Shown here piece after piece: positions 827 through 17,458 of a stretch of DNA of 57,066 nucleotides. The position numbers were made by a program, and so were the translations under genes. Each line of letters starts with the position of its first letter. Position 1 is the stretch's first letter. A model generated the notes under the pieces. It saw only the letters and a program-made list of their open reading frames with translations. It was not told the DNA's origin and did not search any database. This DNA is from Patescibacteria group bacterium (GTDB taxonomy: Bacteria > Patescibacteriota > Minisyncoccia > 2-02-FULL-40-12), in contig JBBTXZ010000004.1 of NCBI GenBank assembly GCA_038062015.1, positions 1-57,066 on the forward strand, written 5' to 3'.

Positions 827-955
827 GAGACGCTCAAGGCAAATCAGTTGACCCGTCAAGTCTTAAAGATTGGCGGGTTTTTGTTTTTTAAAACGAAGGA
901 TTGCTTAAATAAATTTTTTATGATAGAATTTTTTCGAACTGGCTTTTTAAAAAGT

Positions 956-1225
956 ATGGCTCTAACCCCGAAAGAAAAAACAAAAATCATCCAGCCGCAG
1001 TCGCTCCACGAAAAAGACACCGGCTCTACCGGAATTCAAGCGGCTTTATTCACCGAAGAGATAAAACGGCTGATTAAACATTTAAAAGACCATCCCAAAG
1101 ACCATTCTTCCAGGCGGGGTCTTTTGAAAACTGTTTCCAAAAGAAAACGGCTGCTCGATTATCTAAAAAAAGATGATCCGAAAAAATACAGCTCAATCAT
1201 TAAAGACCTGGGGCTAAAACGTTAA
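956..1225 (+). CDS. rpsO: 30S ribosomal protein S15
   Basis: 89-aa product MALTPKEK...HSSRRGLLKTVSKRKRLLDYLKK is S15-like. Classical position upstream of pnp. The longer ORF from 848 is N-terminal junk. Confidence 0.9.
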   Translation: MALTPKEKTKIIQPQSLHEKDTGSTGIQAALFTEEIKRLIKHLKDHPKDHSSRRGLLKTVSKRKRLLDYLKKDDPKKYSSIIKDLGLKR

Positions 1226-1774
1226 ATGGCTTACAAAATAGCTGCCATTGCTTCTTCTTTGCCTAAGCTTTTCATGCATTCTAAAAAAACCCAGACTGTG
1301 GCTGTTTTCGTTGACGCCCAAAACATGTACCACTCGGCCAGAAACCTTTACAAAGCCAGAGTCAACTTTAAAGAACTTTTAAAATTCACTGTGGCCGGAA
1401 GAAATCTAATCAAGGCCAATGCTTACGTCATCAAAAGCGACATCCCCGAAGAACAGGGTTTTTTCGAAGCTTTAGAACGTTCAGGCTATTACCTGAAAAT
1501 GAAGGATCTCCAAATTTTTCCGGGCGGAATGAAAAAGGCCGACTGGGATGTCGGCATGGCCATTGACGCCATCAGCATGGCTCCCAAAGCCGAGGTGATG
1601 GTTTTCGCCACCGGCGACGGTGACTTCATCCCTCTTTTAGAGTATCTGAAACATCAGGGAATCACCGTGGAAGTGGTGGCTTTCAGAAGAAGCACTTCTT
1701 CCAAGCTAATTCAAGCCGCTGACAAGTTTTATGACTTGGAAGAAGAAGCCGAAAGATTTTTGTTAAGAAAATAG
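1226..1774 (+). CDS. NYN/LabA-like (DUF88) PIN-fold protein
   Basis: VAVFVDAQNMY ... DVGMAIDAI ... FATGDGDFIPLLEYLK motifs typical of NYN domains. Confidence 0.75.
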   Translation: MAYKIAAIASSLPKLFMHSKKTQTVAVFVDAQNMYHSARNLYKARVNFKELLKFTVAGRNLIKANAYVIKSDIPEEQGFFEALERSGYYLKMKDLQIFPGGMKKADWDVGMAIDAISMAPKAEVMVFATGDGDFIPLLEYLKHQGITVEVVAFRRSTSSKLIQAADKFYDLEEEAERFLLRK

Positions 1775-1819
1775 TTCGAGACCTCGACTGAGCTCGGTCG
1801 AAGTCCAAGCTCACCATAA

Positions 1820-3919
1820 ATGACCAAAGTCAAAAAGTTTTCAACTGAATACGGGGGCAGAAAACTGGAAGTAGAAATAGGCAAACTGGCTGAACAAGCA
1901 GACGGTTCTGTTTTTATTAGATACGGCGACACTTCAGTTTTAGTGACAGCGATAATGAACGATTTTCAAAAAGACGCAAACTATATGCCCCTGATTGTAG
2001 ATTACGAAGAAAGATATTACGCCGCCGGAAAAATAAAAGGCTCAAGATGGATAAAAAGAGAGACCCGGCCCGGCGAAGAAGCGATTCTCCATGCCCGGAT
2101 GATTGACCGGACCCTGCGCCCCCGCTTTGATCAAAGGATTAGAAACGAAATTCAAATAGTCGCTACCGTCCTCTCTTTTGACGGAGAAAACGACCCGGAT
2201 ATACCTAGCCTTATCGGCGCTTCTTTGGCTTTGATGGTTTCGGATATTCCTTTTTCGGGCCCGGTGGCCGGAGCCAGAATCGGAGAGATAAATGGAGAAT
2301 TGGTCTTAAATCCTAATTATGAACAAAGGGTAAAATCATCTTTTGATCTAGTTGTCGCCGGAATAGACGAAAAAGTGAGCATGCTGGAATTTGAAGGAAA
2401 CCAGATTCCGGAAGACCGGGTTCTAAAAGCCATTGACTTCGGCCATAAAGAATACAAAAAAATAATTGAATTCCAGGCTGGAATCGCCGGCCAGCTTAAA
2501 ACCGAAAAAAGAAAACTGGAAATTTTTGAACCGGAAGAAAAAGTAATCAAGGCGATAAAAAATTTTCTCAAAGACAAGCTGGAAAAGGCCATTTATGAAA
2601 CCAATGGCAAAACTAAAACTTGGTCAGCTTTGGATGCTTTAAAAAATTTGCTGATTGAACACTTAAAAGAAAATTATAAAGACAACTCGGACTTATTCAA
2701 AATTTTAAAAGAGCTTGAAAACATAGTTGGCCAAGAATTAGATGAAATCGTCCATAAAAACATTTTGGAAAAAGAAAGAAGGTCTGATGGAAGAAAATTA
2801 GACCAGATAAGGCCCTTGAATATTGAGGCCGGAGTATTACCGAGAACCCACGGTTCGGCCATTTTCCAACGGGGCGAAACCCAGATTTTAAACATCCTGA
2901 CTTTGGGCAGTCCGGGCAAAGAACAATGGATTGAAGAAATGGAAACCGAAAAAAAGAAATACTTTATGCACCATTATAATTTCCCGCCTTTCTCCGTCGG
3001 CGAAACCGGCCGGGTCGGCTTTCCGGGCCGAAGAGAGATCGGCCACGGCGTTTTAGCCGAAAAATCCCTTGAACCAGTCGTACCAACTAAAGAAAACTTC
3101 CCCTACACTATCCGCCTTGTTTCGGAAGCTTTATCATCTAACGGCTCAACTTCAATGGCTTCGGTCTGCGCTTCTTCTTTGGCTCTGATGGACGGCGGAG
3201 TACCGATAAAAGAACCAGTGGCCGGTATTTCAATCGGCCTGGCTTTATCGCCGGACAAAAAAAGATTCAAGCTTTTAACTGACATCCAAGGCGAAGAAGA
3301 CCATTACGGCGACATGGATTTCAAAGTGGCTGGCACGAAAAATGGAATTACAGGCATTCAGTTAGATGTCAAAACCGACGGGTTGACTAATGAAATAGCT
3401 GAAGCCGCTTTAGAAGAAGCCCGCAAAGCCAGGCTTTATATTCTTGAAGAAATGAAAAAAGTGATTGCCTCGCCTCGGCCCGAACTTTCGCCTTTCGCCC
3501 CCAGAGTCTACAAAATCCAGATCAACCCGGACAAAATCCGAAATGTCATCGGACCGGGCGGCAAAATCATCAATGAAATCATTGCCCAGACCGGAGTCAA
3601 TATAGATATTGAGGACTCGGGTTTGGTCTTTGTCACTTCGGAAAAAGAAGAGGGAGCTAAGAAGGCGCTTGAATGGATTAATAACCTGACTAGAGAAGTT
3701 AAAGCCGGGGAAATTTTTGAAGGAATCGTAGTTAAGATTACTGACTTCGGCGCTTTTATTGAGCTTTTCCCGAACCAGGACGGTTTGGTCCATATCTCGG
3801 AAATCTCGGACAAACGGATTGAAAGAGTTTCCGATGTTTTGAAAGTCGGCGACATGGCCAGAGTAAAAGTCAAAAAAATAGATGAACAGGGCCGAGTCAG
3901 TCTGACGATGAAATTCTAG
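1820..3919 (+). CDS. pnp: polynucleotide phosphorylase
   Basis: 699 aa. Two RNase PH domains, a KH domain (NVIGPGGKIINEI) and an S1 domain (GIVVKITDFGAFIEL). Confidence 0.95.
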   Translation: MTKVKKFSTEYGGRKLEVEIGKLAEQADGSVFIRYGDTSVLVTAIMNDFQKDANYMPLIVDYEERYYAAGKIKGSRWIKRETRPGEEAILHARMIDRTLRPRFDQRIRNEIQIVATVLSFDGENDPDIPSLIGASLALMVSDIPFSGPVAGARIGEINGELVLNPNYEQRVKSSFDLVVAGIDEKVSMLEFEGNQIPEDRVLKAIDFGHKEYKKIIEFQAGIAGQLKTEKRKLEIFEPEEKVIKAIKNFLKDKLEKAIYETNGKTKTWSALDALKNLLIEHLKENYKDNSDLFKILKELENIVGQELDEIVHKNILEKERRSDGRKLDQIRPLNIEAGVLPRTHGSAIFQRGETQILNILTLGSPGKEQWIEEMETEKKKYFMHHYNFPPFSVGETGRVGFPGRREIGHGVLAEKSLEPVVPTKENFPYTIRLVSEALSSNGSTSMASVCASSLALMDGGVPIKEPVAGISIGLALSPDKKRFKLLTDIQGEEDHYGDMDFKVAGTKNGITGIQLDVKTDGLTNEIAEAALEEARKARLYILEEMKKVIASPRPELSPFAPRVYKIQINPDKIRNVIGPGGKIINEIIAQTGVNIDIEDSGLVFVTSEKEEGAKKALEWINNLTREVKAGEIFEGIVVKITDFGAFIELFPNQDGLVHISEISDKRIERVSDVLKVGDMARVKVKKIDEQGRVSLTMKF

Positions 3920-4072
3920 CTCGGGTTGTGTCATTTGAAGGATTATTTGTCTGCGAGTCTTGAGAGAAGAAATTGCTATACCGAGTCGCTTTCGTGAATT
4001 AGCTATACTTCAAGTAAGTTATTCACAGCCTGGTATTTATCATCTCTTAAAAGAAAACATATAATATACGTA

Positions 4073-5287
4073 ATGCCAGACGAACTAAAAAATCAGGGGG
4101 ACCAAAAACCTATTTCTTTGGAGCCGCCCAAAGATATTGAAAATCTTTTAAAAGAGCTGCCCAAAATCGATCCCCCCAAACCCACAGCTCCTCCGGTTTT
4201 ATCTCCGCCAAAACCTCAAACACCGCCTCCCCTAAAACCCATATCTCCCCCTCCAGCCTCCAGCCTCCAGCCTCCAGCTCCCCAGAGTGCTAAATCTTTT
4301 GTCCGAACAATGGCCGAAGATCTTGAAGCCGCCAAAAAAGGGATTAAACCGGAATCGAAGCCATTTGAAATCAAACCGCCGCCGAGCATCCCCAAAACGA
4401 CTCCTCTGCCGCCTCCTTTAAAAATACCTTCTTCCCCCCAGATAAAACTCGGACCGGCAGAAAAAACCAAATCATTGGAATTGCCTAAAATAGAGCCTTT
4501 GCCATCAAGCCCTCCATCTGCCAGAAAATTCGCTTTAAGCCCGAAGTTTTTAATTCTTATTTTGGTTATAATCGCGGCAGTCTTTGCCGGAGCCTGGTTT
4601 TTCCTGACCAGAGAACCAAAACAAGTGGTGGTTATTACGCCAACCCCCGCCCCGACTTCCAGCCCAACGCCAAAAACTTTTTCCGAACTCATTCCTTCTA
4701 CCAGTCAAATTACCATTTCCTCAACTAAAAATTTCCTGACCGTCCTGACTAGCGAAATAAACTCTCTGACTTTAACCGCCGGCAGTCTGACTTTCTTAAA
4801 TCTTATTGATGAAAATGGCGCTCCGTATTCCCTGAATCAAATTTTTGAAAAACTAGGCATTATCCCTCCAGCTGGCCTCTTGGAAAATCTGGATTCCGAT
4901 GAATGGATGATCGCTGCTTACGGTCAAAAAGAGTCATTCAATTCAAAGAGTCTCTTAACTTTCAATGAAGCGCCCAAACCGAAAATAGTCTTAGCAGCCA
5001 AGATATTCGACTTAATTCCTTTAAGAAGCACATTAAACAACTGGGAGTCTGCCATGACCGACGACTTAAAAAACTTATTCGGCCTCGATTCAAAAAAAGC
5101 AACCAGCGAAACATTTCTGGATAATATCTATGGCGGAATCGACATCCGATACCGAAACTTTCCTTTTGCCGATAAAAGTATTGATTACGCTATCGTCAGT
5201 CTAACCGAATTCAATGCTGATTACTTTGTTCTTGCCGGCTCCAGAGAAAGCATTTATTCGGCTATTGATCTCTTGCAACGTCAATAA
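4073..5287 (+). CDS. proline-rich membrane-anchored protein, function unknown
   Basis: N-terminal 150 aa are Pro-rich low complexity, followed by one TM helix (FLILILVIIAAVFAGAWFFL) and a C-terminal globular part. Confidence 0.6.
   Translation: MPDELKNQGDQKPISLEPPKDIENLLKELPKIDPPKPTAPPVLSPPKPQTPPPLKPISPPPASSLQPPAPQSAKSFVRTMAEDLEAAKKGIKPESKPFEIKPPPSIPKTTPLPPPLKIPSSPQIKLGPAEKTKSLELPKIEPLPSSPPSARKFALSPKFLILILVIIAAVFAGAWFFLTREPKQVVVITPTPAPTSSPTPKTFSELIPSTSQITISSTKNFLTVLTSEINSLTLTAGSLTFLNLIDENGAPYSLNQIFEKLGIIPPAGLLENLDSDEWMIAAYGQKESFNSKSLLTFNEAPKPKIVLAAKIFDLIPLRSTLNNWESAMTDDLKNLFGLDSKKATSETFLDNIYGGIDIRYRNFPFADKSIDYAIVSLTEFNADYFVLAGSRESIYSAIDLLQRQ
4251..4278. repeat. 4 perfect tandem copies of heptamer CTCCAGC (reverse complement GCTGGAG) inside a CDS
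   Basis: Read directly: ctccagc x4. Confidence 0.9.
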
Positions 5288-5298
5288 AAACTCTTGTC

Positions 5299-5327
5299 TT
5301 GACAAGTAGAAACAACCGGCAAATAAT
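5299..5327 (+). promoter_or_regulatory. sigma70-like promoter
   Basis: TTGACA, 17-nt spacer, AATAAT, about 38 nt upstream of the dksA-like start. Confidence 0.5.
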
Positions 5328-5364
5328 TAAGCTAAGGGGCAACTCGGCCTGTTATTTATTATAA

Positions 5365-5724
5365 ATGACACCTCAACAACTTGAACAATTAAAGAAAAGC
5401 TTGGCTGAAGAAAAAAAGAGGATCGAAAAAGAATTAGGCGAAATCGGCCAAAAAAATCCCAAAGTAGAGGGTAATTTTGACGTTCGCTTTCCCCAATACG
5501 GCCAGGGCAAGGATGAGAACGCCCAAGAAGTGGCTGAATTTGAAAAAATGAAAATTCTTGAAGCTAATTTAGAAAAAAGGCTCGGCGAAATAAACGAAAC
5601 TCTAAAAAAAGTTGGGGAAGATACTTATGGAACTTGTCAAAGCTGCTCGGCCGAAATAGAAAAGCCGCGGCTCAAAGCCATGCCTACGGCTTCTCTTTGT
5701 TCTGTTTGCGCTAAAAAAATATAA
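5365..5724 (+). CDS. DksA/TraR-family C4 zinc-finger protein
   Basis: Coiled-coil N-terminus and CQSCSAEI...CSVCAKK four-Cys finger. Confidence 0.8.
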   Translation: MTPQQLEQLKKSLAEEKKRIEKELGEIGQKNPKVEGNFDVRFPQYGQGKDENAQEVAEFEKMKILEANLEKRLGEINETLKKVGEDTYGTCQSCSAEIEKPRLKAMPTASLCSVCAKKI

Positions 5725-5830
5725 TAGACATTTCGATATATCAATATATATGGGCAAGAATCCATATGATTATTTTGTCCGGTATAAATAAACATTTATT
5801 TATACCTCACTTATAATTATAATTTGAGTA

Positions 5831-7384
5831 ATGACCTCAAAAATATTTTCTGCCGCCATCATCGGACTTGACGCCATTCCGATTGAAGTTGAAGTTGATA
5901 CCTCGCGCGGCCTGCCTTCTTTCAATATCGTCGGCCTGCCGGATAAAACCGTCCAAGAATCAAAAGACCGGATAAATTCGGCCATAAAAAATTCCGGCCT
6001 CCAAAATCCTAAAAAAGAAAACCTGAAAATAGTGGTTAATCTTGCTCCGGCCGACATAAAAAAACAGGGGCCGACTTATGACCTGCCGATCGCCGCCTGT
6101 TACCTTTTGAACACCAAGCAGGTTGAATTCGACTACAAAGAAAAAATTTTCGCCGGAGAACTGGCTCTGGATGGCTCATTAAGAAGTATAACCGGAGTTT
6201 TGTCGATCGCTCTAATGGCCAGAGATCGCGGATTTAAAGAACTAATCCTACCCAAACAAAACACCAAAGAAGCCAGCCTGATCAAGGGAATCAGAATTAT
6301 CGGCCTTAAAAATTTAACCGAACTGGCCGCCTACTTAAACGGTCAAATTTTGATTGAGCCGGAAAAACCGGCTGATTTCTCAAAATTATTAATCGACGGT
6401 AACAATCAAGATTTCGACATCTCTGAAATCAAGGGGCAGGAAACAGCCAAAAGGGGCATGGCCATTGCCGCAGCCGGCTTCCACAATATCCTTTTGACCG
6501 GGCCGCCGGGCGCCGGAAAAACAATGCTGGCCAAAGCCCTGCCTTCAATCATGCCGGCTCTTTCTTTAAAGGAAGCTCTCGAAATAACTAAAATACACAG
6601 TATTGCCAACGTTTTAAAATATACGGAAGAAGACAATGGCTATTTAATCAGTCAGAGGCAATTTAGAAATCCACATCATACTGCTTCGGCCGCGGCTTTG
6701 GTCGGCGGCGGAGCCAATCCCAGGCCCGGCGAAATAAGCCTGGCCCATCGGGGCGTTTTGTTTTTGGACGAATTCCCGGAATTCAACCGCGACGTTTTGG
6801 AATCTCTGCGCCAGCCCCTTGAAGAAGGAAAAATTTCAGTTTCGCGGGCCAGCCACTCAATCACCTATCCAGCCAGGTTTCTATTAGTCGCTTCAATGAA
6901 CCCCTGCCCCTGCGGAAATTATCAAAATCCCCAAAAAGAATGCCTCTGCGCTCCGGGAACCATAATGCGATACCAGAAAAAAATCTCCGGCCCGCTCTTG
7001 GACCGATTCGACATTAAATTAAACGTGCCGCAGGAAGACCCCAGAAAATTAAAAGACGAACCGAATTACCAAGAATCAAAAGAGACAAGAAAACTGGTGG
7101 AAGCAGCGAGACAAAAACAGCTTGAGCGTTTTCAAGAAAGCGGAATCTTCACCAATTCGGAGATGACTAATCGTCAAGTGAGAAAGTTTTGCAAAATTGA
7201 TCCGGAAACCGAAGAAACTTTAGACAATTACGCCACTGTGAAAAAAATAAGCCACCGGGCTTATTTCAAAATTTTGAAGCTGGCCCGGACCATCGCTGAT
7301 TTGGAGGGCCGGGAAAATATTTTGGGGCAGGATATAAACGAGGCCTTCATCTACAAAAACGATGGTGTGCTGGTGACTTTATAA
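5831..7384 (+). CDS. comM: YifB/ComM Mg-chelatase-like AAA+ ATPase
   Basis: Lon-protease-like N-domain. Walker A GPPGAGKT. VLFLDEFPEF. C-terminal ChlI-like region. Confidence 0.9.
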   Translation: MTSKIFSAAIIGLDAIPIEVEVDTSRGLPSFNIVGLPDKTVQESKDRINSAIKNSGLQNPKKENLKIVVNLAPADIKKQGPTYDLPIAACYLLNTKQVEFDYKEKIFAGELALDGSLRSITGVLSIALMARDRGFKELILPKQNTKEASLIKGIRIIGLKNLTELAAYLNGQILIEPEKPADFSKLLIDGNNQDFDISEIKGQETAKRGMAIAAAGFHNILLTGPPGAGKTMLAKALPSIMPALSLKEALEITKIHSIANVLKYTEEDNGYLISQRQFRNPHHTASAAALVGGGANPRPGEISLAHRGVLFLDEFPEFNRDVLESLRQPLEEGKISVSRASHSITYPARFLLVASMNPCPCGNYQNPQKECLCAPGTIMRYQKKISGPLLDRFDIKLNVPQEDPRKLKDEPNYQESKETRKLVEAARQKQLERFQESGIFTNSEMTNRQVRKFCKIDPETEETLDNYATVKKISHRAYFKILKLARTIADLEGRENILGQDINEAFIYKNDGVLVTL

Positions 7385-7563
7385 ATGTTTTTGGTGAGAT
7401 TCTGAATTCTGCCCGCAGGAAGGTTTGGGGAGGAATGCGGGAAACATATTATTTTTTAATTAATTTAAAATTTTTTAACAAAAGAAAAACGAACCGATCA
7501 GCGTAAGCCAACCAGTTCGTCGATGTTTGTCCACACTGCGTAGTGGACTTCACGGTGGTATTT

Positions 7564-7863
7564 CTACCACACTTGGGTCTTGCCCTCCCGTTGGAGGTCC
7601 CAAGCCGTGAACACCGCTCCAGCCTCGACCAGCCGTTTGACGACTGGGAGGAGCTGGGAGCTCGTCCCGCCGTTGGCGATGAGCGTGTAGCTTTCGCCGG
7701 CGGCGGGAGCGAACGCGCTCACGGGGACAACTTCGACTCCAGCCGGAGGCTGAAGCTGATCTCCGTCCCGAGAGATCACGAGCACACCCTGCTCGTTGGG
7801 GAATCCCCGACGCGCATCCGCGAGGATGCCTTCCGTGTTGCGACCGAGAAATGATAGAATCAT
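7564..7863 (-). CDS. hypothetical 99-aa protein in GC-rich cassette a
   Basis: AAGGAGAAGAAC precedes the ATG. Hand count of 7561-7860 gives 189/300 = 63% G+C. This frame looks protein-like, while the two overlapping frames are Arg/Gly-rich junk. No family recognised. Confidence 0.5.
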   Translation of the reverse strand: MILSFLGRNTEGILADARRGFPNEQGVLVISRDGDQLQPPAGVEVVPVSAFAPAAGESYTLIANGGTSSQLLPVVKRLVEAGAVFTAWDLQREGKTQVW

Positions 7864-7975
7864 GTTCTTCTCCTTGTGAATGCTGGGCGTAGCCAGCAGA
7901 TTTCAATGAGGTCGAAAGCGTCATTGCTCCGACCTTGATCGCGCTCAGCGCGAGTATGCCTCGGCTTCTGAAGCC
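7864..7975 (-). promoter_or_regulatory. structured 5' leader of cassette a (three hairpins)
   Basis: Hairpins at 7963-7975, 7939-7953 (TCGCGC-TGA-GCGCGA on the transcribed strand) and 7910-7934. The 21-nt block 7939-7959 matches 8447-8467 at 19 of 21 positions. Confidence 0.45.
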
Positions 7976-8143
7976 AGACAATTAAATCGCAAATGATTTG
8001 TAATCTAATTGCCTAGCTTCAAAATTTATTTTCTCAAAGATCTTCTGTTTCGGCTTTTTAAGCCATCATCAGGGTAAGTACACACTTACCGACAGAGAGG
8101 GTTTTGTTAATCCAGACCCTCAATCTGGAATTAAGTGCGGGGA

Positions 8144-8380
8144 TTACCAGCCCTCGCACTCTTTTTTTGGGACTTGCACCCAGCGGGCGTACAGCCCGCC
8201 GAGGATCCCTTTGGTGCCCTCTCGGCGGTACCCAGCCACGGCAACGTACCAGTTGCCGTTGACTTGGGTCAAATCCCCCGCATTGGGGGTTTGATCCAAT
8301 CGGGCTCGGGGCCATGCTCCGAGCATGCCTTCTTCTGACCCTGGCTGAGCGGCGATAGCCGCCATTTCCTCTTTTTTCAT
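8144..8380 (-). CDS. hypothetical 78-aa protein in GC-rich cassette b
   Basis: ATG at 8380 lies 6 nt after GGGGAGGGCGGG. About 62% G+C in the line sampled. The longer TTG-initiated 100-aa version would include leader sequence. No family recognised. Confidence 0.45.
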   Translation of the reverse strand: MKKEEMAAIAAQPGSEEGMLGAWPRARLDQTPNAGDLTQVNGNWYVAVAGYRREGTKGILGGLYARWVQVPKKECEGW

Positions 8381-8611
8381 CCCGCCCTCCCCGCTCTTTG
8401 AGCGAGAGAATCTTCTGCCGCAAAATGCGTACCAGAAGCCTTTCAATCGCGCACAGCGCGTGTATGCTTTTTCGGAATATATTCCCGAAGAGCGAACTAA
8501 GTATATATTCTAACTTTATATACCCACTTCGCTCTTCAGGAAACCTAGTTTTTAAAGAAAACTGCTTAATCAGGTGTTGCACTTGAGGGTTTAATGGACG
8601 ATTTTCTTAAT
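8381..8611 (-). promoter_or_regulatory. long structured 5' leader of cassette b
   Basis: 10-bp stem GAAGAGCGAA/TTCGCTCTTC (8487-8545 region). GGAATATATTCC palindrome (8474-8485). Conserved CGCGC-TGT-GCGCG hairpin (8447-8461). CTTCTG...CAGAAG hairpin (8412-8438). Confidence 0.45.
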
Positions 8612-8617
8612 ACTTTA

Positions 8618-8646
8618 ATTATACACCCATATTGAAACTTTGTCAA
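8618..8646 (-). promoter_or_regulatory. perfect consensus sigma70 promoter driving cassette b
   Basis: The minus strand reads TTGACA-aagtttcaatatgggtg(17)-TATAAT. The -35 element overlaps the stop codon of the upstream M23 gene. Confidence 0.7.
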
Positions 8647-9791
8647 ATCCGAGCGTAAGGATTCCTCGCTCCGTGAACCTCGAAATGCAGATGGCAGCCG
8701 GTGGAGCGGCCAGTGGAACCCATTAAACCGATAAGTTGGCCCCGAGAAATAAATTCGCCGCTTGAAACAAAAAGCCGCGACAAGTGGGCGTATAAAGTGT
8801 AAATTTCGTTGCCGTGGGAAATCTTGACGTACTTCCCTGCCCCGCCGTTCCAACCGCTTTGTCTGGCCGCAATAACCGAACCTTCAGCCGCAGAGTAAAC
8901 CGGCGTACCACAGATACTGGCCACATCAACTCCATTCCGGCCGTGGATCCGGCCCCAGTTATGCCCTTGAGCCGGCAAAAAGAAAAATCCGCCCAAATCA
9001 GGTAAACGGGCAAAACGAACATTGGAAGTATAGGCAATGTACTGGCCGGCAATCTGAATTTTCCCGTCAGGCACGATTATCTCCTGGCCAAGCTGCAAAG
9101 AACCGTCTTTAGGCAAACCATTAAACTCAAATATTTTATCTTCTTGAGCTGAATACTTCTTAGCGATTGACTGAATGCTATCGCTCTGCTTAACAATATG
9201 AATAACCCCGGAAACAGGAGGAATTTTTAATTCTTGACCCGGGCTTAAATAATCGCTATTCTTTAAATTGTTGGCCCAGATCAGGGAATTAGCGCTGATG
9301 CCGAAATCATTAGCCACTTGGCCCAAGGTGTCGCCGGGCTGGACAGTGTAACTCACAATCTGGTTCCGCTGGCCGTTATCAAAAATGGAGGTCAATGATT
9401 GATAAGGCAGGAATGATTCCTGAAAAACATTACGCGACGAATCAGTCTTGTCTTGGCTGACTGAAAGTGTTTGGCTTAGAAAAAAATCTCCATCGGCCGG
9501 CTCGGTATTTAAATTGATGAGAGCGGAAGTTTCTTCAATATAATCTTCCACTGCCAGACTTAAAACAGTGCCTTGGCCTTGGCCGGAAGTAGTTTTGAAA
9601 GAAAATAAAATAATGACCGAAGTTATCAAAATAAACAGAACCAGCCGGTCATTTTCAACATAAGATTTGTATTTGGCGAGATTTTTTTTAAAAAATCCAA
9701 AAAATGCGATTACTTCGGGATTTAAAAACATATACATATAGATAAGAATCAATATAATTAGTTCGCTCGGATGAACTGAAATAACTTTCAA
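8643..9791 (-). CDS. LysM-domain M23 family metallopeptidase (cell-wall hydrolase)
   Basis: N-terminal TM. Two LysM repeats (YTVQPGDTLGQVANDFGIS; HIVKQSDSIQSIAKKY). M23 motifs HGRNGVDVA and GCHLHFEV. The start (TTG at 9791) is uncertain. Confidence 0.85.
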   Translation of the reverse strand: MKVISVHPSELIILILIYMYMFLNPEVIAFFGFFKKNLAKYKSYVENDRLVLFILITSVIILFSFKTTSGQGQGTVLSLAVEDYIEETSALINLNTEPADGDFFLSQTLSVSQDKTDSSRNVFQESFLPYQSLTSIFDNGQRNQIVSYTVQPGDTLGQVANDFGISANSLIWANNLKNSDYLSPGQELKIPPVSGVIHIVKQSDSIQSIAKKYSAQEDKIFEFNGLPKDGSLQLGQEIIVPDGKIQIAGQYIAYTSNVRFARLPDLGGFFFLPAQGHNWGRIHGRNGVDVASICGTPVYSAAEGSVIAARQSGWNGGAGKYVKISHGNEIYTLYAHLSRLFVSSGEFISRGQLIGLMGSTGRSTGCHLHFEVHGARNPYARI

Positions 9792-9890
9792 TCATCCTCG
9801 CTCACAATTATAAAAATCCTCTTCCGAGGACTACAAATATTGTAGGAAAAATAAATCTAATGTCAAATTAAGATATCAACAATTGAACAT

Positions 9891-10043
9891 ATGACCGTTC
9901 CAAGAAAACACACCACCAAGAGTAGCCAAGGCCAAAGAAGACAGCACTTAAAGCTTAAAAGGCTTAATCTTTTGCCCTGCCCCAAATGCGGCAATCTAAA
10001 AATGTCTCATAAAATGTGTAAAAGCTGCGGATTCTATAAATAA
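9891..10043 (+). CDS. rpmF: 50S ribosomal protein L32
   Basis: 50 aa, [19 protein letters not shown]...CPKCGN...CKSCG. Too short for the supplied ORF track; translated by hand. Confidence 0.85.
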
Positions 10044-10480
10044 TGGCTTCAAGACACCTTGCCCGTTCAATTGCAATTCAATCCCTTTACGAATGGGACT
10101 TTAAAAACTGCGACTCCGGCTCTCTGCCTGAAATCATCCAAAGGAACATCAAAGAATTCGGGCCGGGGCTTAAAGAAGAAAAATTCGTGGACAGTTTAAT
10201 CAAAGGGGTGGTAGAGCATAAAAGAGAGCTCGACAACATAATCGAGAAAGCGGCGCCAATGTGGCCGATTAACCAGATTGATATGATTGACCGGAATGTT
10301 TTAAGATTGGGGCTTTACGAGCTTTTATATGAAGACAAAAATGAAGTGCCTCCTAAAGTAGCGATCAACGAAGCCATTGAACTGGCTAAAAGTTTCGGCG
10401 GTGAAACTTCCGGCAAATTCATAAACGGCGTTTTGGGAACGGTTTTTAGAGAAATGGAAAAGAAAAATGGAGATAAATAA
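10043..10480 (+). CDS. nusB: transcription antitermination factor NusB
   Basis: [14 protein letters not shown] ... INEAIELAK ... FINGVL. Confidence 0.9.
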
Positions 10481-11162
10481 ACTTCAAGAGCTTGAGCGAA
10501 AATTAGGCGTACACTTCCATAATCATGATCTGTTGCTCGAAGCCCTGACTCACCGTTCTTACTTAAATGAACGGCCTGACTGGCGCTTGAATCACAACGA
10601 ACGGCTGGAATTTCTGGGCGATGCGGTTTTAGAATTGATTGTCACAGAGCGCCTTTTCAAAGACCACAACGAACCGGAAGGAGTTTTAACTTCCTGGCGG
10701 GCGGCTTTAGTCAACTCATCAATGCTGGCTGAAATCTCCAAAAAACTGAACTTAAACGAATATGCCCTTTTGTCGCAAGGAGAAAGAAAAGACAATGGCC
10801 GGGCGAGACAATATATTTTAGCCAATGCCCTGGAAGCGATAATTGGAGCAATCTATCTTGACCAAGGCTACGAAGAAACAAAAAAATTCATTGAAAAAAA
10901 CATTCTTGTCGAATTTGAAAGAATCATAGACCAAAAATTGTATAAAGACGCTAAATCGCTTTTTCAGGAAAAAGCCCAGGAAAGGGAAGGAGTCACGCCT
11001 TCATACAAAGTTTTGGACCAGTGGGGGCCGGATCACGACAAAACTTTCAAAGTCGGAATTTATTTAAATGACGAATTGGCCGGCGTGGGCTTCGGCCCCT
11101 CAAAACAGGAAGCCCAGCAAAAAGCGGCCGAAGACGCTCTTCACAAAAAAGAATGGGAATGA
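10467..11162 (+). CDS. rnc: ribonuclease III
   Basis: Signature [11 protein letters not shown] plus a C-terminal dsRBD ([10 protein letters not shown]...[10 protein letters not shown]). Confidence 0.95.
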
Positions 11163-11173
11163 TATTATTTTAA

Positions 11174-11530
11174 ATGATGGCTGAAAAAAATACTGATCAG
11201 GAATTCGTTGAACATATCGTCAAGTCTTTAGTCAATCACCCTGATGATGTCATAGTTGAAAGAAAAATTGATGAAATGGGGGTCCTTTTAACTCTCAAAG
11301 TCAATCCGGCTGATATGGCTTTAGTGATAGGGAAAAATGGTTCAACTGCCAGAGCGATAAGAACTTTAGTCTGGATAATCGGCTTAAGAAACCGCGCCCG
11401 GGTCAATTTCAAAATTGAAGAACCGGAAGGCTCGACCCGTTCGGCTATCGCTCAGGGTGGTGAGCAAGGTCGAACCATGAGGATGAAAAGGGGCGAGATG
11501 GAATCAGTCGTTGACGAACTGAAATCATAA
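11174..11530 (+). CDS. KH-domain RNA-binding protein (YlqC/KhpA-like) with GC-rich C-terminal extension
   Basis: VIGKNGSTARAIRTLV KH core. The tail from about aa 85 is encoded by a GC-rich element (11429-11478). Confidence 0.8.
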   Translation: MMAEKNTDQEFVEHIVKSLVNHPDDVIVERKIDEMGVLLTLKVNPADMALVIGKNGSTARAIRTLVWIIGLRNRARVNFKIEEPEGSTRSAIAQGGEQGRTMRMKRGEMESVVDELKS

Positions 11531-12177
11531 AGTTTGACGTAGTTACAATTTTCCCGGAAATTTTTGACTCTTTCCTCAAAGAGTCGCTTTTACATAAGGC
11601 TCAAGAGAAAAAAATAATCCAGGTGAAAATCCATAATCTCCGAAATTGGGCAGAAGGCAAACATCAGGTAGTAGATGACTCCCCTTACGGCGGCGGCCCG
11701 GGAATGGTTTTAAAGATTGAACCGATTTTTAAAGCAATAAGAGAAGTTAGAAGTAAGAAGTTAGAAGAAAAAAAGAGAACAAAAATAATTTTTCTTTCGC
11801 CCAGAGGGAAAAAGTTTATCCAAAAAATAGCTCAAAGATGGGCCAAAGAATTAAAACAATTGGTCATAATCTCCGGACGCTATGAAGGAATTGATGAAAG
11901 AGTTAAAAAACTAGCTGATGAAACAATTTCGGTCGGCGATTTTATCACTCTTGGCGGCGAAGTCCCGGCCATGGCTATAATTGAAGCCATGGCAAGATTG
12001 ATTCCCGGGGTAGTCGGCAAAAAAGCCTCAATTGAAAAACTGGATTTTCCTCAATACACCAGACCGGAAATCTTTTCACCTCAAAAATCAGCTAAATGGG
12101 CGGTGCCCAGGGTCTTAGTTTCTGGCAATCATAAAAAAATCTCTGAATGGAGAAAAAAACACTCGAAAAAGATTTAG
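11527..12177 (+). CDS. trmD: tRNA (guanine37-N1)-methyltransferase; start codon unresolved
   Basis: KFDVVTIFPEIF... conserved TrmD N-terminus begins at 11530. The frame has a stop at 11512. No ATG, GTG or TTG occurs before the conserved residues; only ATC, ATA and ATT codons are available. Confidence 0.85.
   Translation: MKFDVVTIFPEIFDSFLKESLLHKAQEKKIIQVKIHNLRNWAEGKHQVVDDSPYGGGPGMVLKIEPIFKAIREVRSKKLEEKKRTKIIFLSPRGKKFIQKIAQRWAKELKQLVIISGRYEGIDERVKKLADETISVGDFITLGGEVPAMAIIEAMARLIPGVVGKKASIEKLDFPQYTRPEIFSPQKSAKWAVPRVLVSGNHKKISEWRKKHSKKI
11742..11769. repeat. heptamer tandem array AGAAGTT/AGAAGTA/AGAAGTT/AGAAGAA inside trmD
   Basis: Read directly. Confidence 0.8.
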
Positions 12178-12182
12178 CCTCG

Positions 12183-12551
12183 ATGAGCACTAAAGAGATT
12201 GGATTTCTGGCTGAAGGAATCGCCCGGCATTATTTAATTAAGAAAGATTATAAAATTTTAGCGGCGAATTACAAAATGAGTTTTGGCGAAATTGATATTA
12301 TCGCTCAAAAAGACAGCACTGTAATTTTCGCTGAAGTAAAAGCCAATAAAGATGTTGCTCCTGAATTTTCACCTGAAATAAGAGTTGATTACAAAAAGAA
12401 AAATAAACTGATAAATCTGGCGACGGCTTATATGTTAAATCGGGAAATGGCCGACTTAGACTGGCAGATAGACATAATTTCGGTTATTTTTGACTCGGAA
12501 AATAAAAAAGCTCACATCAAACATTTCAAAAATGCCGTCAATAGTTACTAA
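12183..12551 (+). CDS. yraN: YraN-family (UPF0102) endonuclease-like protein
   Basis: GFLAEGIARHYL...GEIDIIA...FAEVKA. Confidence 0.8.
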   Translation: MSTKEIGFLAEGIARHYLIKKDYKILAANYKMSFGEIDIIAQKDSTVIFAEVKANKDVAPEFSPEIRVDYKKKNKLINLATAYMLNREMADLDWQIDIISVIFDSENKKAHIKHFKNAVNSY

Positions 12552-12993
12552 AAGCGCAAAAGAAACTAAACAAATTGCCGCGAAACTGGCGGGGAGGCTA
12601 ATTAAGAAAAGAAATCGCGGAGCCTTAGTCGTAGCTCTTGAAGGAGAACTTGGCGCCGGGAAGACAACTTTCATCAAAGGATTTTCAAAAGCTCTGGGTA
12701 TTCGCGAAAAAATCCTAAGCCCGACATTTGTTTTAATCCATAAACACAAAATAATTAATAACAAAAAACGAATAAAGAATAAAGAATTCAAAAATCTTTA
12801 TCATATAGATTGTTATCGACTAAAATCCGGAAAAGATTTATTAAAACTCGGGATTAAAGAAATTTTCGCCAATCCGGAAAACATTGTCTTAATCGAGTGG
12901 GCCGACAGAGCAAAAAAGATTGTGCCTAAAAATGCGATTTGGATTTATTTTAGTCACTTGGAAAAAAATACAAGAAGAATAACAATAAAATAA
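12532..12993 (+). CDS. tsaE: tRNA t6A37 biosynthesis ATPase TsaE
   Basis: LEGELGAGKTTFIKG ... SPTFVLIH ... YHIDCYRL. Confidence 0.85.
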   Translation: MPSIVTKSAKETKQIAAKLAGRLIKKRNRGALVVALEGELGAGKTTFIKGFSKALGIREKILSPTFVLIHKHKIINNKKRIKNKEFKNLYHIDCYRLKSGKDLLKLGIKEIFANPENIVLIEWADRAKKIVPKNAIWIYFSHLEKNTRRITIK

Positions 12994-15413
12994 TGAAAAC
13001 TCTCGTTTTAATCGACGCGAATGCCTTAATCCACCGGTCATTTCATGCTTTGCCGCCGCTTAAAGCTCCAAGCGGCTTGATAACCAATGCGATTTTCGGA
13101 TTTTCTTCAACTCTACTCAAAATGCTCAAAGACCTTAAACCTGATTATATTGCCGCCGCTTATGACTTAGCCGGCCCGACTTTCCGCCACGAAGCTTTTA
13201 AAGAATATAAAATCCACCGAGCCAAAGCGCCGGACGAACTTTATAGCCAAATCCCCTACACCAAAAAAGTTCTTGAGGGTTTTGGTATCCCGCCTTTAAC
13301 CAAACAAGGCTTTGAGGCCGATGATATTATCGCTACCTTGACTGAAAAATTCGAAAAGGAAAAAGATATAAAAATAATAATCGTCACCGGCGACTTGGAC
13401 GCGCTCCAGCTCGTGAAAAATAAAAAAATTCTGGTTTACACAATGAAAAAAGGCTTAAGCGATACAATGATTTATGACGAAAACGCAGTTCAAGAAAGAT
13501 ATGGTTTGAAACCAGAGCAATTAACCGACTATAGAGGACTCAAGGGTGATCCGTCAGACAATATTCCGGGCGTACCGGGTGTCGGCGATAAGACCGCCTC
13601 GGAGCTTTTAAAAGAATATGGCACGATTGAACAACTCTACAAAGACTTAAAATCAAAAATCAAAAATCCCGCCAGAGGCGAGGCTCGCCCGAGGCGGCAA
13701 AAAACAAAATTATTAAAAGAAGGTTTGGTAAAAAAGCTGTTGGACCACGAGGAGCAAGCCTTATTTTCAAAACATCTGGCTATGATGATAAAAGATCTGG
13801 ATATTGATATTGATTTTAAAAAGGCTGATTGGAAAAATAATTTTAACCGCCCGGCTTTGGAAAAAGTTTTCAGAGAGTTGAACTTCACAAGTTTAATTTC
13901 CCGAATACCAGAAGTAAAAGTTAAAAATGAGAAATTAGAAATCAGAAAAGAAGAGAAAAAAGAAACTAAAAATACTATCACTCCAGAAGATTCAGAAAAT
14001 CTAGTCAAAAAAATTCAGATTGCGGCCTGGCTTTTGAATTCGGAGCTGAAAGAACCGACTCTGGAAGAAGTATATTTCAATGAATTTGGCAAAATGATTC
14101 CAAGTGAAAACACAGAATTAAACATTGCCAAACTCTATGAAATTTTAATAAGTAAACTCAAAGATGCCGAGCTTCTTAAAGTTTTGGAAGAAATTGAGGC
14201 TCCCATAATTCCAATTTTAGCCGAAATGGAATCGAATGGTTTTAAAATAGATGAAAAACAGATTAAAAAACTGGCTGATTTTAGCAAAAAAGAAATCAAA
14301 GAACTGGAAGAGAAAATTTTCAAGCTAGCCGGAATTAGATTCAATATCAGCTCAACCCGGCAGTTAAGCGAAATATTGTTTAACCGACTAAAAATTATTG
14401 GCCGAATAAGAAAAACACCTAAAGGAAAATTATCCACCCGGGCAACTGAACTTGAAAAACTTATTGAAGCCCACCCGATTATTCCTTTAATCCTAAATTA
14501 CCGAGAGCTTCAAAAACTTAAAACAACCTACATCGACCCCTTTCCAAAATTAATTAACCCAAAAGATAACCGGCTTCACACCACTTTTATTCAAACCGGA
14601 ACCGTGACCGGCCGCTTGGCCAGTCAAAATCCGAATCTACAGAACATCCCGATAAAAACCGAATTGGGCCAAGAGTTCAGAAAAGTTTTTATCGCAGAAA
14701 AAGGATACAAACTAATTTCGCTTGATTTTTCTCAGATTGACTTAAGGATTGCCGCCCATATTGCTCAAGACGAAAAAATGATTAACTTCTTTAAAAAAGG
14801 AGAAGACATCCACTTAAGAACTGCGGCTGAAGTTTTTGATATTTCACCGGAAAACGTAACCCCAAGAATGAGGCGGGAAGCCAAGGCCTTGAATTTCGGC
14901 ATAATCTACGGTATGGGACCGCAGGGATTCGCCCGCTCGGCCGGAATCAAGCAGGCTGAAGCCAAGAAGTTTATCGAAAAATATTTTGAAGAATTTCCGA
15001 AAATCGCCGAATATATGGCCGAAATGAGAAACGAAGCCCACGAAAAAGGAGTGATTAAGAACTTACTGGGGAGAAGAAGACAGTTAACTGAAATTTACTC
15101 TTCTATTCCGGAAATGGTCAGGCAAGCCGAGAGAATGGCCATAAACTTTCCGATTCAAAGTATGACCAGCGACATAACGAAAATGGCAATGATTAAAATT
15201 CAGGAGTATATTCATAAAAATTATGAAAAAGAGGAAATTAAAATGCTGCTTCAGGTCCACGATGAAATTGTTTTAGAAGCCAAAGAAAATATAGCCGAAA
15301 AGATAGGCGAAGAATTAAAGAAAATTATGGAAGGCGTGTATAAGCTTGACGCGCCGTTGGTTGCTGAAGCAAAAATCGGGGATAATTGGCGCGATCTTAA
15401 ACCAATAAATTGA
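12993..15413 (+). CDS. polA: DNA polymerase I
   Basis: 5' nuclease domain (LIDANALIHRSFHA; GDPSDNIPGVPGVG) and family A polymerase motifs (DFSQIDLRIAAH; QVHDEIV). Confidence 0.95.
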   Translation: MKTLVLIDANALIHRSFHALPPLKAPSGLITNAIFGFSSTLLKMLKDLKPDYIAAAYDLAGPTFRHEAFKEYKIHRAKAPDELYSQIPYTKKVLEGFGIPPLTKQGFEADDIIATLTEKFEKEKDIKIIIVTGDLDALQLVKNKKILVYTMKKGLSDTMIYDENAVQERYGLKPEQLTDYRGLKGDPSDNIPGVPGVGDKTASELLKEYGTIEQLYKDLKSKIKNPARGEARPRRQKTKLLKEGLVKKLLDHEEQALFSKHLAMMIKDLDIDIDFKKADWKNNFNRPALEKVFRELNFTSLISRIPEVKVKNEKLEIRKEEKKETKNTITPEDSENLVKKIQIAAWLLNSELKEPTLEEVYFNEFGKMIPSENTELNIAKLYEILISKLKDAELLKVLEEIEAPIIPILAEMESNGFKIDEKQIKKLADFSKKEIKELEEKIFKLAGIRFNISSTRQLSEILFNRLKIIGRIRKTPKGKLSTRATELEKLIEAHPIIPLILNYRELQKLKTTYIDPFPKLINPKDNRLHTTFIQTGTVTGRLASQNPNLQNIPIKTELGQEFRKVFIAEKGYKLISLDFSQIDLRIAAHIAQDEKMINFFKKGEDIHLRTAAEVFDISPENVTPRMRREAKALNFGIIYGMGPQGFARSAGIKQAEAKKFIEKYFEEFPKIAEYMAEMRNEAHEKGVIKNLLGRRRQLTEIYSSIPEMVRQAERMAINFPIQSMTSDITKMAMIKIQEYIHKNYEKEEIKMLLQVHDEIVLEAKENIAEKIGEELKKIMEGVYKLDAPLVAEAKIGDNWRDLKPIN

Positions 15414-16630: not shown

Positions 16631-16669
16631 TAACAAAAATGCCCGAGAAGTTTAACAAACTTCTCGGGC
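16631..16669 (-). terminator. Rho-independent terminator of cassette c
   Basis: GCCCGAGAAG-tttgttaaa-CTTCTCGGGC, then ATTTTTGTT on the minus strand. Confidence 0.75.
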
Positions 16670-16709
16670 AGAAACAAAGGGATCCAAGGACCAAGTGTCC
16701 AAGGGCCTA

Positions 16710-17258
16710 CTACTTGCCAGGAGCCGCGAGACGATAGTCGCGATGGAAATCGCTGTCAAGCCAGCTGAAGCCCAGAGCCCACCGGTCGCCGCCCCAGTCG
16801 AGGCACGGCACAATCCGGTCGCCGTCGCGGTACTGCCAGATAGTGGCCGTGAAGATCAGTACAAAGTTTCGGAGCTCGGTCGGAATATTGTCCTGGTTCT
16901 CCAACAGCCATTCGGCGTCTTCTTGGCCAAGGTTAGCATCAAGAGACGGTATACGGGACCGACGCACCGTCTCTTCGCCGTTCACGTTGTCCTCGCCGTC
17001 CTTGTGGAACGGGATGCCGATGATGGCGCCGGAGATGCGACGCGGCTGGTTCTCCAAAAGCATCAAACCATCTTTCCGCTTGTCATGGCGGAAGTTGCCG
17101 AAAACTGATCCAAAGCGACCCTCAATGGCTGCCTGAAGATGCGCTTTGAGCTGAAAAGCATCGAACGGATAACCGTTTAACTGCCTCAACTGGCGACCGA
17201 TCTCGAATAACTGTCCCGTGATGCTTTCGTACAGATCGCCTGCGACCATATTGGCCAT
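16710..17258 (-). CDS. hypothetical 182-aa protein in GC-rich cassette c
   Basis: AAGGAGAATCGTC precedes the ATG. Sampled lines give 58-67% G+C. Has its own terminator. The sequence looks globular (repeated LLENQ; C-terminal WQYRDGDRIVPCLDWGGDRWALGFSWLD). No family recognised. Confidence 0.6.
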   Translation of the reverse strand: MANMVAGDLYESITGQLFEIGRQLRQLNGYPFDAFQLKAHLQAAIEGRFGSVFGNFRHDKRKDGLMLLENQPRRISGAIIGIPFHKDGEDNVNGEETVRRSRIPSLDANLGQEDAEWLLENQDNIPTELRNFVLIFTATIWQYRDGDRIVPCLDWGGDRWALGFSWLDSDFHRDYRLAAPGK

Positions 17259-17283
17259 GACGATTCTCCTTGTGTTGGCTGCG

Positions 17284-17330
17284 TCAATGCAGCGATTTGA
17301 CTATTTTCTGTAGCCAAATCGCTGCATTGA
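17284..17330 (-). promoter_or_regulatory. 16-bp perfect-stem hairpin in the leader of cassette c
   Basis: TCAATGCAGCGATTTG (17284-17299) pairs with CAAATCGCTGCATTGA (17315-17330), 26 nt upstream of the start codon. Confidence 0.5.
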
Positions 17331-17458
17331 TTCGTAAGTAATTATTGCATATAAAGTGCTGTTTTTAGGTGTTTTTCAACCTATATATTTATTATACACC
17401 CAAACAATATACTTGTCAAATGCCAATATTGATTCTCTGTTCTACTATAAAAAGCGAA

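Follow-up and report, generated by a model that had tools for sequence, protein, structure and literature searches.

The stretch of DNA analysed here (the window) comprises 57,066 nucleotides (nt) of contig JBBTXZ010000004.1 in assembly GCA_038062015.1 of a Patescibacteria group bacterium, and positions are those of its forward strand. Between the stop codons of comM and of an M23/LysM peptidase gene lies a segment with two small minus-strand open reading frames (ORFs), called orfA (7863-7564) and orfB (8380-8144) throughout, and with a predicted hammerhead ribozyme between them. In our judgement, the segment 7386-8643 is probably a horizontally acquired 1.26-kb insertion in the chromosome of a member of the candidate phyla radiation (CPR), and consists of one minus-strand two-gene operon with the hammerhead between its genes. 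The original prediction, made from the sequence alone, had located both ORFs correctly together with their Shine-Dalgarno (SD) sequences, AAGGAG at 7875-7870 for orfA and GGGGAGGG at ~8392-8385 for orfB. The features of the segment are given below in the order of transcription; L-numbers denote related loci that were compared with the window.

7386-8643 (1258 nt), minus strand: inserted segment, flanked by the stop codons of comM (7382-7384) and of the M23/LysM peptidase gene (8643-8645)
8646-8618, minus strand: sigma-70 promoter TTGACA-N17-TATAAT, 12/12 consensus positions
8604-8574, minus strand: putative remnant of an IS30-like terminal inverted repeat, 22/32 positions against the right inverted repeat of the L002 element, including the exact run AGTGCAACAC
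8542-8482, minus strand: long AU-rich hairpin of leader b with 26-bp arms (inverted repeat and minimum-free-energy fold)
8467-8446, minus strand: shared block copy b, GCAUACA-CGCGC-UGU-GCGCG-AU (hairpin P1)
8438-8412 and 8406-8390, minus strand: hairpins P2 and P3 of leader b (folds); the 3' arm of P3 overlaps the SD GGGGAGGG
8380-8144, minus strand: orfB, 78 amino acids (aa), uncharacterised family
8160-8134, minus strand: stop-codon hairpin of orfB, read from the sequence; conserved in L002, L008, L010 and L101
8129-8097, minus strand: H-type pseudoknot UCCAGA-UU-GAGGG-U-CUGGA-UUAACAAAA-CCCUC, whose 3' strand abuts stem III of the hammerhead
8098-8042, minus strand: type III hammerhead, between orfB and orfA; predicted cleavage C8091/G8090
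8024-7966, minus strand: long AU-rich hairpin of leader a, 23 bp (fold and palindromic BLAST match); conserved in L010
7959-7938, minus strand: shared block copy a, GCAUAC-UCGCGC-UGA-GCGCGA-U (P1)
7934-7910 and 7898-7881, minus strand: P2 (loop GCAAU) and P3 of leader a (folds and alignment)
7863-7564, minus strand: orfA, 99 aa, small Rossmann-like alpha/beta protein, uncharacterised family
7570-7478, minus strand: conserved 3' untranslated region (UTR), with a stop-codon hairpin (7570-7555), a second hairpin (7548-7529) and an intrinsic terminator (7521-7488) followed by a U tract

A hammerhead ribozyme and a pseudoknot between the genes

The element between orfB and orfA matches the Rfam family Hammerhead_3 with 37.1 bits (E-value 9e-6 when calculated for the region, 2e-4 over the whole window). 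Its core is complete: it has CUGAUGA and GAAA, A15.1 pairs with U16.1, and the triplet is GUC. Loops cap stems I and II, and stem III is open. We compared it with 10 related instances, all from CPR bacteria. CUGAUGA (C3-U4-G5-A6-N7-G8-A9) and GAAA (G12-A13-A14) are present in the window and in every one of these instances. Across the 10, stem I is paired at 7/7 positions, with double changes at 6/7, and stem II at 4/4 positions, three of which covary. The open stem III is short (5 bp), and its 16.3-15.3 pair is U-A, U-G or C-G depending on the instance. GUC, GUU and GUA all occur as the cleavage triplet but GUG does not, so that H17 is C, U or A. As far as sequence comparison goes, a complete core with covarying stems is the signature of a functional hammerhead.

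Rfam also detected Hammerhead_3 in L008, L010, L101 (two copies), L106 and L107, and the scores of the relatives ranged from 33 to 43.5 bits (E-values from 2e-4 to 3e-6). The ribozyme lies 3' of orfB in L008, L010, L101 and L110, and beside unrelated genes in L101 and L106/L107. When one genome per species was searched with a sequence pattern, six true copies were found, all in CPR bacteria (three Saccharibacteria and one each of Kaiserbacteria, Moraniibacteriota and Woesebacteria); all six have unrelated gene neighbours, and none is near orfA or orfB. No relevant report of hammerheads in CPR/Patescibacteria was found in the literature searched. Two near-identical hammerheads in L101 (2055-2141 and 3840-3926), in both of which stem II is extended by 36 nt, bracket a block of three genes, for a DUF3228 protein and for proteins of 158 aa and 93 aa; the second hammerhead has plain hairpins in front in place of the pseudoknot.

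The H-type pseudoknot lies directly 5' of the hammerhead and is nearly invariant across 10 loci, with two stems of 5 bp each (stems 1 and 2) and a loop 1 of 2 nt. In L106 both strands of stem 2 are shortened by 1 bp in a coordinated manner (GAGG/CCUC). The composite of pseudoknot and hammerhead recurs in Saccharibacteria, Kaiserbacteria, Moraniibacteriota and Woesebacteria beside unrelated genes, and IMG/VR contained no match to it. No Rfam family matched positions 8090-8150 (61 nt) at E-values up to 10. The original prediction had described a "structured 3' region" behind orfB; the region is indeed structured, and it resolves into the stop-codon hairpin, the pseudoknot and the hammerhead, the last of which had been overlooked. 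A U-rich motif of the form ~YUUUGA (CUUUGA, GUUUGA or CUUUGU) was also seen ~10 nt or less past stem III in most of the 10 loci (8030-8036 in the window), being degenerate in L008, L101 and L127; weak pairing with the CAAAAC in the loop of the pseudoknot would be possible.

orfA and orfB are conserved protein-coding genes

Both ORFs belong to families of nearly constant length. We found 22 close homologues of orfA, nearly all of 98-101 aa and 61-92% identical, and an exhaustive profile search returned 164 clusters (50% identity), almost all of them standalone, unannotated proteins of 90-140 aa; giant Big_9/cadherin proteins in the same list were rejected as spurious repeat matches. For orfB there were 18 homologues, or 28 clusters with a profile (90% identity), nearly all of 78 aa. 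Among the relatives the proteins are 60-92% identical. Compared with L010, substitutions at the first, second and third codon positions numbered 8/7/24 in orfA and 10/13/37 in orfB. AlphaFold2 (AF2) gave confident models: orfA (mean predicted local distance difference test score, pLDDT, 91.9) as a small Rossmann-like alpha/beta domain, and orfB (pLDDT 85.5) as an N-terminal helix with a small beta-sheet. Because of the constant-length homologues, the bias of substitutions to third positions and the confident models, orfA and orfB are real genes, and both are under purifying selection.

Pfam, PADLOC and PHROG gave no match for either protein, nor did Foldseek against PDB and BFVD or a profile search against PDB sequences give a significant one. 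For orfA, which has a Gly-rich ANGGT loop, Foldseek listed the CARF domains 7z55 and 9c6c as weak matches (E 0.15-0.27, TM 0.43-0.52) that were no better than generic Rossmann proteins. A single distant relative of orfA was present in IMG/VR. The homologues, the substitution pattern and the models bore out the original suggestion that the peptides are coding, and from the analysis emerge two small families of proteins, which are unannotated and whose folds were modelled with confidence. Tandem duplicates of orfA without orfB occur in L009, L014, L015, L016 and L017, including a Gammaproteobacteria metagenome-assembled genome (MAG).

The two genes stand out in composition, as originally noted. 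Their G+C content is 63% (orfA) and 60% (orfB), against a window mean of 40.3% (standard deviation 5.8% in 300-nt windows), and the orfA region is the G+C maximum of the entire window. A copy of orfA in L102 (5001-5300) encodes a protein that is 71% identical but has only 44% G+C, with 31% G+C at third codon positions (GC3) vs 72% in the window copy; this copy, unlike that of the window, appears to be adapted to an AT-rich host. With a GC3 of only 31% in L102, the high G+C is a trait of the element lineage found in the window and not of the orfA family.

The module is an insertion and is mobile

L111, a locus in a Patescibacteria MAG from the same aquifer whose ComM is 92% identical, is collinear with positions 917-13056 of the window. 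It matches 917-7385 and 8645-13056, and between the stop codons of the comM and M23 genes it carries an unrelated segment of 607 nt. The order M23-orfB-orfA-comM and both junctions were found again in contigs of four separately assembled samples. In L010 the homology spans 8559-7442 of the window. L002 and L004, from one metagenome, share a 2.06-kb block that consists of an IS30-like element, orfB and orfA, and the flanks of this block differ on both sides. The IS30-like element, which has an HTH_38/HTH_32 transposase and terminal inverted repeats, lies directly upstream of the module. Because L111 lacks the module and the same block occurs in unrelated contexts beside an IS30-like element, the module has been inserted here and is mobile. 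It is thus a presence/absence polymorphism between two populations of one aquifer well.

In the window itself there is no transposase gene, and tblastn with the L002 transposase gave no match better than E = 4. Inspection by eye of the sequence downstream of orfA, where no search was run, revealed no partner of the IS30-like repeat. Elsewhere, copies of the family adjoin tRNA genes accompanied by a gene for an integrase or serine recombinase, adjoin RAMP-family (type III CRISPR-like) genes or the type IV CRISPR gene Csf3, or form part of phage-like arrays of small genes. The two genes occur together in the window, L002/L004, L008, L010, L099 and L101, in the last of these in reversed order. 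These contexts point to orfA and orfB being accessory cargo of mobile elements. The comM-M23 spacer looks like an insertion hot spot, because L111 has at the same site (6935-7155) an element resembling a miniature inverted-repeat transposable element, with ~45-nt inverted repeats.

One operon with a single promoter and a single terminator

On the minus strand the order is promoter, a multi-hairpin leader of ~230 nt, orfB, its stop-codon hairpin, the pseudoknot, the hammerhead, a second multi-hairpin leader, orfA, and the 3' UTR with the terminator. The perfect TTGACA-N17-TATAAT at 8646-8618, which the original prediction had pointed out along with the length of leader b, is the sole strong promoter-like site in the region, and 7521-7488 is the sole minus-strand terminator. 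The stretch between orfB and orfA contained no promoter-like or terminator-like site. With nothing of either kind separating them, the genes form a single operon. In L099 the two reading frames even overlap. The 3' UTR is ~95-100% identical among the window, L002, L004, L008 and L010.

The -35 hexamer TTGACA (8641-8646) shares bases with the TGA that terminates the M23/LysM peptidase gene, whereas the same gene in L111 ends in TAG; for this reason the promoter of the operon may be a hybrid formed at the insertion junction. Each gene finishes with a Trp codon and the stop codon, both enclosed by a hairpin in which the final codons are paired with the 3' arm (7555-7570 and 8134-8160 in the window). 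The stop hairpin of orfA has been kept by compensatory changes, being GUGGUA/UACCAC in the window vs CUGGUA/UACCAG in L102 (~5296-5311).

A leader motif shared by the two genes

Each gene is preceded by a leader with the same order of elements: a long AU-rich hairpin, GCAUAC, the hairpin P1, a variable P2 with a GCAAU-type loop, and a variable P3 by the SD. The original prediction had recognized this shared series, although the small hairpin drawn as its first member is in fact the AU-rich hairpin of 23-26 bp (8024-7966 and 8542-8482). At the position of the long hairpin of leader b, L002, L004 and L010 have hairpins of other sequence. The shared blocks agree at 20/22 positions (7938-7959 vs 8446-8467), one more at either count than had been reported; with up to three mismatches allowed, the block occurs exactly twice in the 57 kb, where none is expected (100 shuffles). 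Against shuffled sequences, both leaders fold far more stably (z-scores of -6.5 for 7864-8041 and -5.65 for 8381-8610), in line with the hairpin-rich leaders originally described, and no Rfam match covered either of them, just as no known leader or riboswitch family had been recognized before.

P1 is kept upstream of orfA and/or orfB in L002, L008, L010, L011 and L101, whatever the gene order, so the block recurs before homologous genes in other lineages, as the original prediction had proposed to look for. Among ~40 related loci it was not found upstream of any other gene. A search of 596 Gb of genomes for the P1 motif returned 76 matches, of which one was true (L061, in the context of L002) and the rest arose by chance in GC-rich genomes. 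We aligned 11 leaders with MAFFT and folded the alignment with RNAalifold, which retained only P1, with one compensatory pair: in the orfB leader of L101 (L101-b), a G-C to A-U change gives CACGC/GCGUG. The covariation-like support that had been claimed for the leader is thus thin. With modest confidence, we read P1 as acting in cis on orfA and orfB specifically, most likely as a common binding site through which both genes are co-regulated and to which one of the two proteins possibly binds. A different per-gene leader was seen in the GC-rich relative L108, where an 85-nt element (ACGGGAUACGCGGAACCACGAG...) stands upstream of the orfB homologue and again upstream of the next gene (1-85 and 478-565) and has no Rfam match.

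How the operon may work

Since no promoter or terminator lies between the genes, the ORFs overlap in L099 and there are no attC sites, a bicistronic, self-cutting transcript is the most economical reading. The primary transcript would cover both cistrons and cut itself between C8091 and G8090. The orfB mRNA would then end in a 2',3'-cyclic phosphate 6 nt past the pseudoknot, and this short distance from the new 3' end suggests a protective role, in which the pseudoknot may cap the 3' end and so shield it from exonucleases. The mRNA of orfA would start with a 5'-OH and retain the folded ribozyme, which could insulate its leader from upstream sequence in the manner of the synthetic insulator RiboJ. 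In this way the two cistrons may gain separate stability and translation.

A bolder form of this proposal, to which we give perhaps one chance in several and no better, would make the pseudoknot-hammerhead unit a dedicated 3'-end-forming device of CPR mobile elements with a triplex-type pseudoknot cap, and the P1-P2 leader a new protein- or ligand-binding regulatory RNA that couples both proteins in a feedback circuit. If true, the unit would be a bacterial analogue of MALAT1 maturation, which proceeds by RNase P and a triple helix.

Several observations weigh against the self-cutting operon as we read it. The hammerhead score is below the Rfam gathering threshold (37.1 vs 48.5 bits), and the cleavage is a predicted one. 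The L002/L004 lineage has the pseudoknot and both genes without a hammerhead, so the ribozyme is dispensable; because the pseudoknot was kept there after the loss of the hammerhead, it is not merely a cap for an end made by the ribozyme. Being nearly invariant, the pseudoknot has its pairing backed by a single coordinated indel. P1 shows one compensatory pair and has mismatched variants in L004-b and L101-a, and P2 and P3 could not be aligned among the 11 leaders. Functional annotation is absent for both proteins in Pfam, PADLOC, PHROG, PDB and BFVD. Finally, orfA is frequently found without orfB, also as tandem duplicates, and the two proteins need not act as a pair.

Alternative explanations

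The role of P1 can be read in two other ways. It may be a DNA operator, TCGCGC-TGA-GCGCGA, at which a dimeric repressor (the product of orfA, of orfB or of a neighbouring helix-turn-helix gene) blocks both genes, the RNA hairpin being incidental. We consider this improbable but worth keeping in mind, and slightly ahead of the bolder form of our proposal. The perfect palindrome is equally compatible with such an operator: it is 15 bp long with half-sites ~9 bp apart, its stem is nearly invariant, as if sequence and not pairing were conserved, and the sole double change (L101-b) keeps the dyad symmetry as well as the pairing. An HTH_3 gene also adjoins the module in L004 and L005. However, copy b lies ~150 nt downstream of the sole promoter, within the transcribed leader, and no promoter was found near copy a; there is asymmetry both in the conserved flanks (AC upstream, AU downstream) and in how P1 is oriented to the genes, and P1 always stands within the fixed series of RNA hairpins. 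Because P1 is well downstream of the sole promoter, we favour a site that acts at the RNA level. The other reading, that the leaders are a new ligand-sensing riboswitch or metabolite-responsive RNA controlling the translation of each gene, seems quite unlikely to us. The strong folding of the leaders, the fixed spacing of P1 and the conserved P2 loop GCAAU, and the overlap of the P3 3' arm with the SD in leader b would all suit it, and the lack of an Rfam match would make it new. Yet the leaders are consecutive simple hairpins with no multi-helix junction or conserved internal loop, they contain a single covarying pair, the genes give no hint of a metabolite, and the motif is confined to a narrow clade, being absent from many homologues (L008-b, L099, L106 and L109).

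As to the genes themselves, the original prediction had seen each ORF as an autonomous unit, and had offered a mobile cassette family as one interpretation; in this reading the pair would be two independent mobile cassettes, integron-like or self-contained, each with its own leader. Each gene does have an SD, a leader and a 3' structure; the order is reversed in L101 and orfA stands alone at many loci, and the hammerhead with the long hairpin marks a modular boundary that was cleanly deleted in L002. Autonomy fails, however, on the missing promoter and terminator between the genes, on orfA having no promoter of its own and on the overlapping ORFs in L099; attC cores are absent, there is no recombinase nearby in the window, and the genes occur as a pair in the window, L002/L004, L008, L010, L099 and L101. 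What stands of the proposed mobile cassette family is its foreign and mobile nature, seen from L111 without the module and from the IS30-like contexts; integron-type cassettes they are not, and two independent cassettes have in our view a slim chance of being correct, little better than the riboswitch. A defence, anti-defence or toxin-antitoxin module, with orfA as, for example, a minimal CARF-like nucleotide binder, is compatible with the operon model and is a speculative option that we rate on a par with the bolder proposal above. Small paired genes on mobile elements fit such a role, orfA homologues adjoin RAMP-family genes and an integrase in L006, in L116 a homologue of orfB belongs to an array with Csf3, and orfA has a Rossmann-like fold, the ANGGT loop and weak Foldseek matches to CARF domains (E ~0.2). 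These matches were no better than those to generic Rossmann proteins and there was no BFVD neighbour; neither PADLOC, PHROG nor Pfam gave a match, and orfA often occurs without orfB. An artefact, whether a chimeric assembly or non-coding GC-rich DNA in which ORFs are open by chance, could have produced the sharp jump in G+C and the several frames that are open across 7543-7981. It is already refuted and has next to no probability, since the same junctions occur in contigs of four separately assembled samples, which settles the chimera that the original prediction wished to exclude, and since the substitutions follow codon positions at 60-92% protein identity.

A second foreign island in the window

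Outside the segment, positions 16640-17430 form a second foreign island with up to 61% G+C. Its minus-strand ORF (17258-16710, 182 aa) has no Pfam, PADLOC or PHROG match. The island has its own TTGACA-N17-TATAAT (~17425-17390), a hairpin leader and a terminator (~16680-16640), and its promoter has the extended -10 GGGTGTATAAT in common with the orfB promoter.

Comparison with known systems

Among H-type pseudoknots with an A-rich third loop, including preQ1-I aptamers, the element next to the hammerhead is alike in its 5-bp stem 1, 2-nt loop 1 and 5-bp stem 2, and its loop UUAACAAAA presumably resembles the tail of the Thermoanaerobacter preQ1-I aptamer. We rejected a preQ1-I aptamer as a candidate: there was no Rfam match at E = 10, the element lies 3' of an ORF and not before an SD, and no queuosine-related gene is nearby.

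With integron cassettes the segment shares small foreign genes in tandem and a repeated structured element per gene. In the window, however, this element is 5' of each ORF, the genes have their own promoter and terminator, and there is no integron integrase. An integron gene cassette was also rejected because no attC cores (R'' RYYYAAC, R' GTTRRRY) were present on either strand of 7386-8700. The likeness to IS30-family elements with passenger DNA lies in L002/L004, where the IS30-like element and the module share one 2.06-kb block; the inverted repeats there bracket the transposase gene only and not orfB and orfA, and the window has only a possible solo repeat.

RiboJ, reportedly built by Lou et al. 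in 2012 as a synthetic insulator from the sTRSV hammerhead and a hairpin, offers a parallel for the orfA side of the transcript. In RiboJ a type III ribozyme cuts at its own 5' side and is retained on the downstream mRNA, and hairpins before the ribosome binding site (RBS) standardise the 5' UTR. The window element likewise would leave a type III ribozyme on the downstream mRNA, with hairpins before the RBS; it is natural, and insulation by it is presumed from this arrangement.

The ribozyme itself resembles the Rfam family RF00008 (clan CL00010) in its core, the A15.1-U16.1 pair, the GUH triplet, the loop-closed stems I and II with an open stem III, and the covarying stems. It differs in its sub-threshold score, the 5-bp stem III, the preceding pseudoknot and the CPR host. 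Bacterial self-cleaving ribozymes are known to cluster by particular classes of genes (Weinberg et al., PMC5737381), and hammerheads flanking single genes or short gene stretches in prophages and integrated elements have been suggested to cut long transcripts down to mRNAs the length of a gene (Perreault et al. 2011, PMC3088659). Like these prophage hammerheads, the element of the window is a ribozyme between small variable genes on mobile DNA, a setting that is often near integrases; unlike them, it is a single ribozyme inside a two-gene operon, it forms a composite with a pseudoknot, and the genes have a conserved leader of their own. The general arrangement of hammerhead-punctuated genes in mobile elements has therefore been known since 2011, and the locus is a CPR variant of it and not a new class of system. 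The CPR host range, the conserved pseudoknot-hammerhead unit and the leader specific to the orfA/orfB pair appear to be undescribed. With this locus, CPR/Patescibacteria join the hosts of mobile genes punctuated by hammerheads, and it would be a compact natural example of the separation of cistrons by a ribozyme, in which a conserved pseudoknot upstream may lend stability to the cleaved 3' end.

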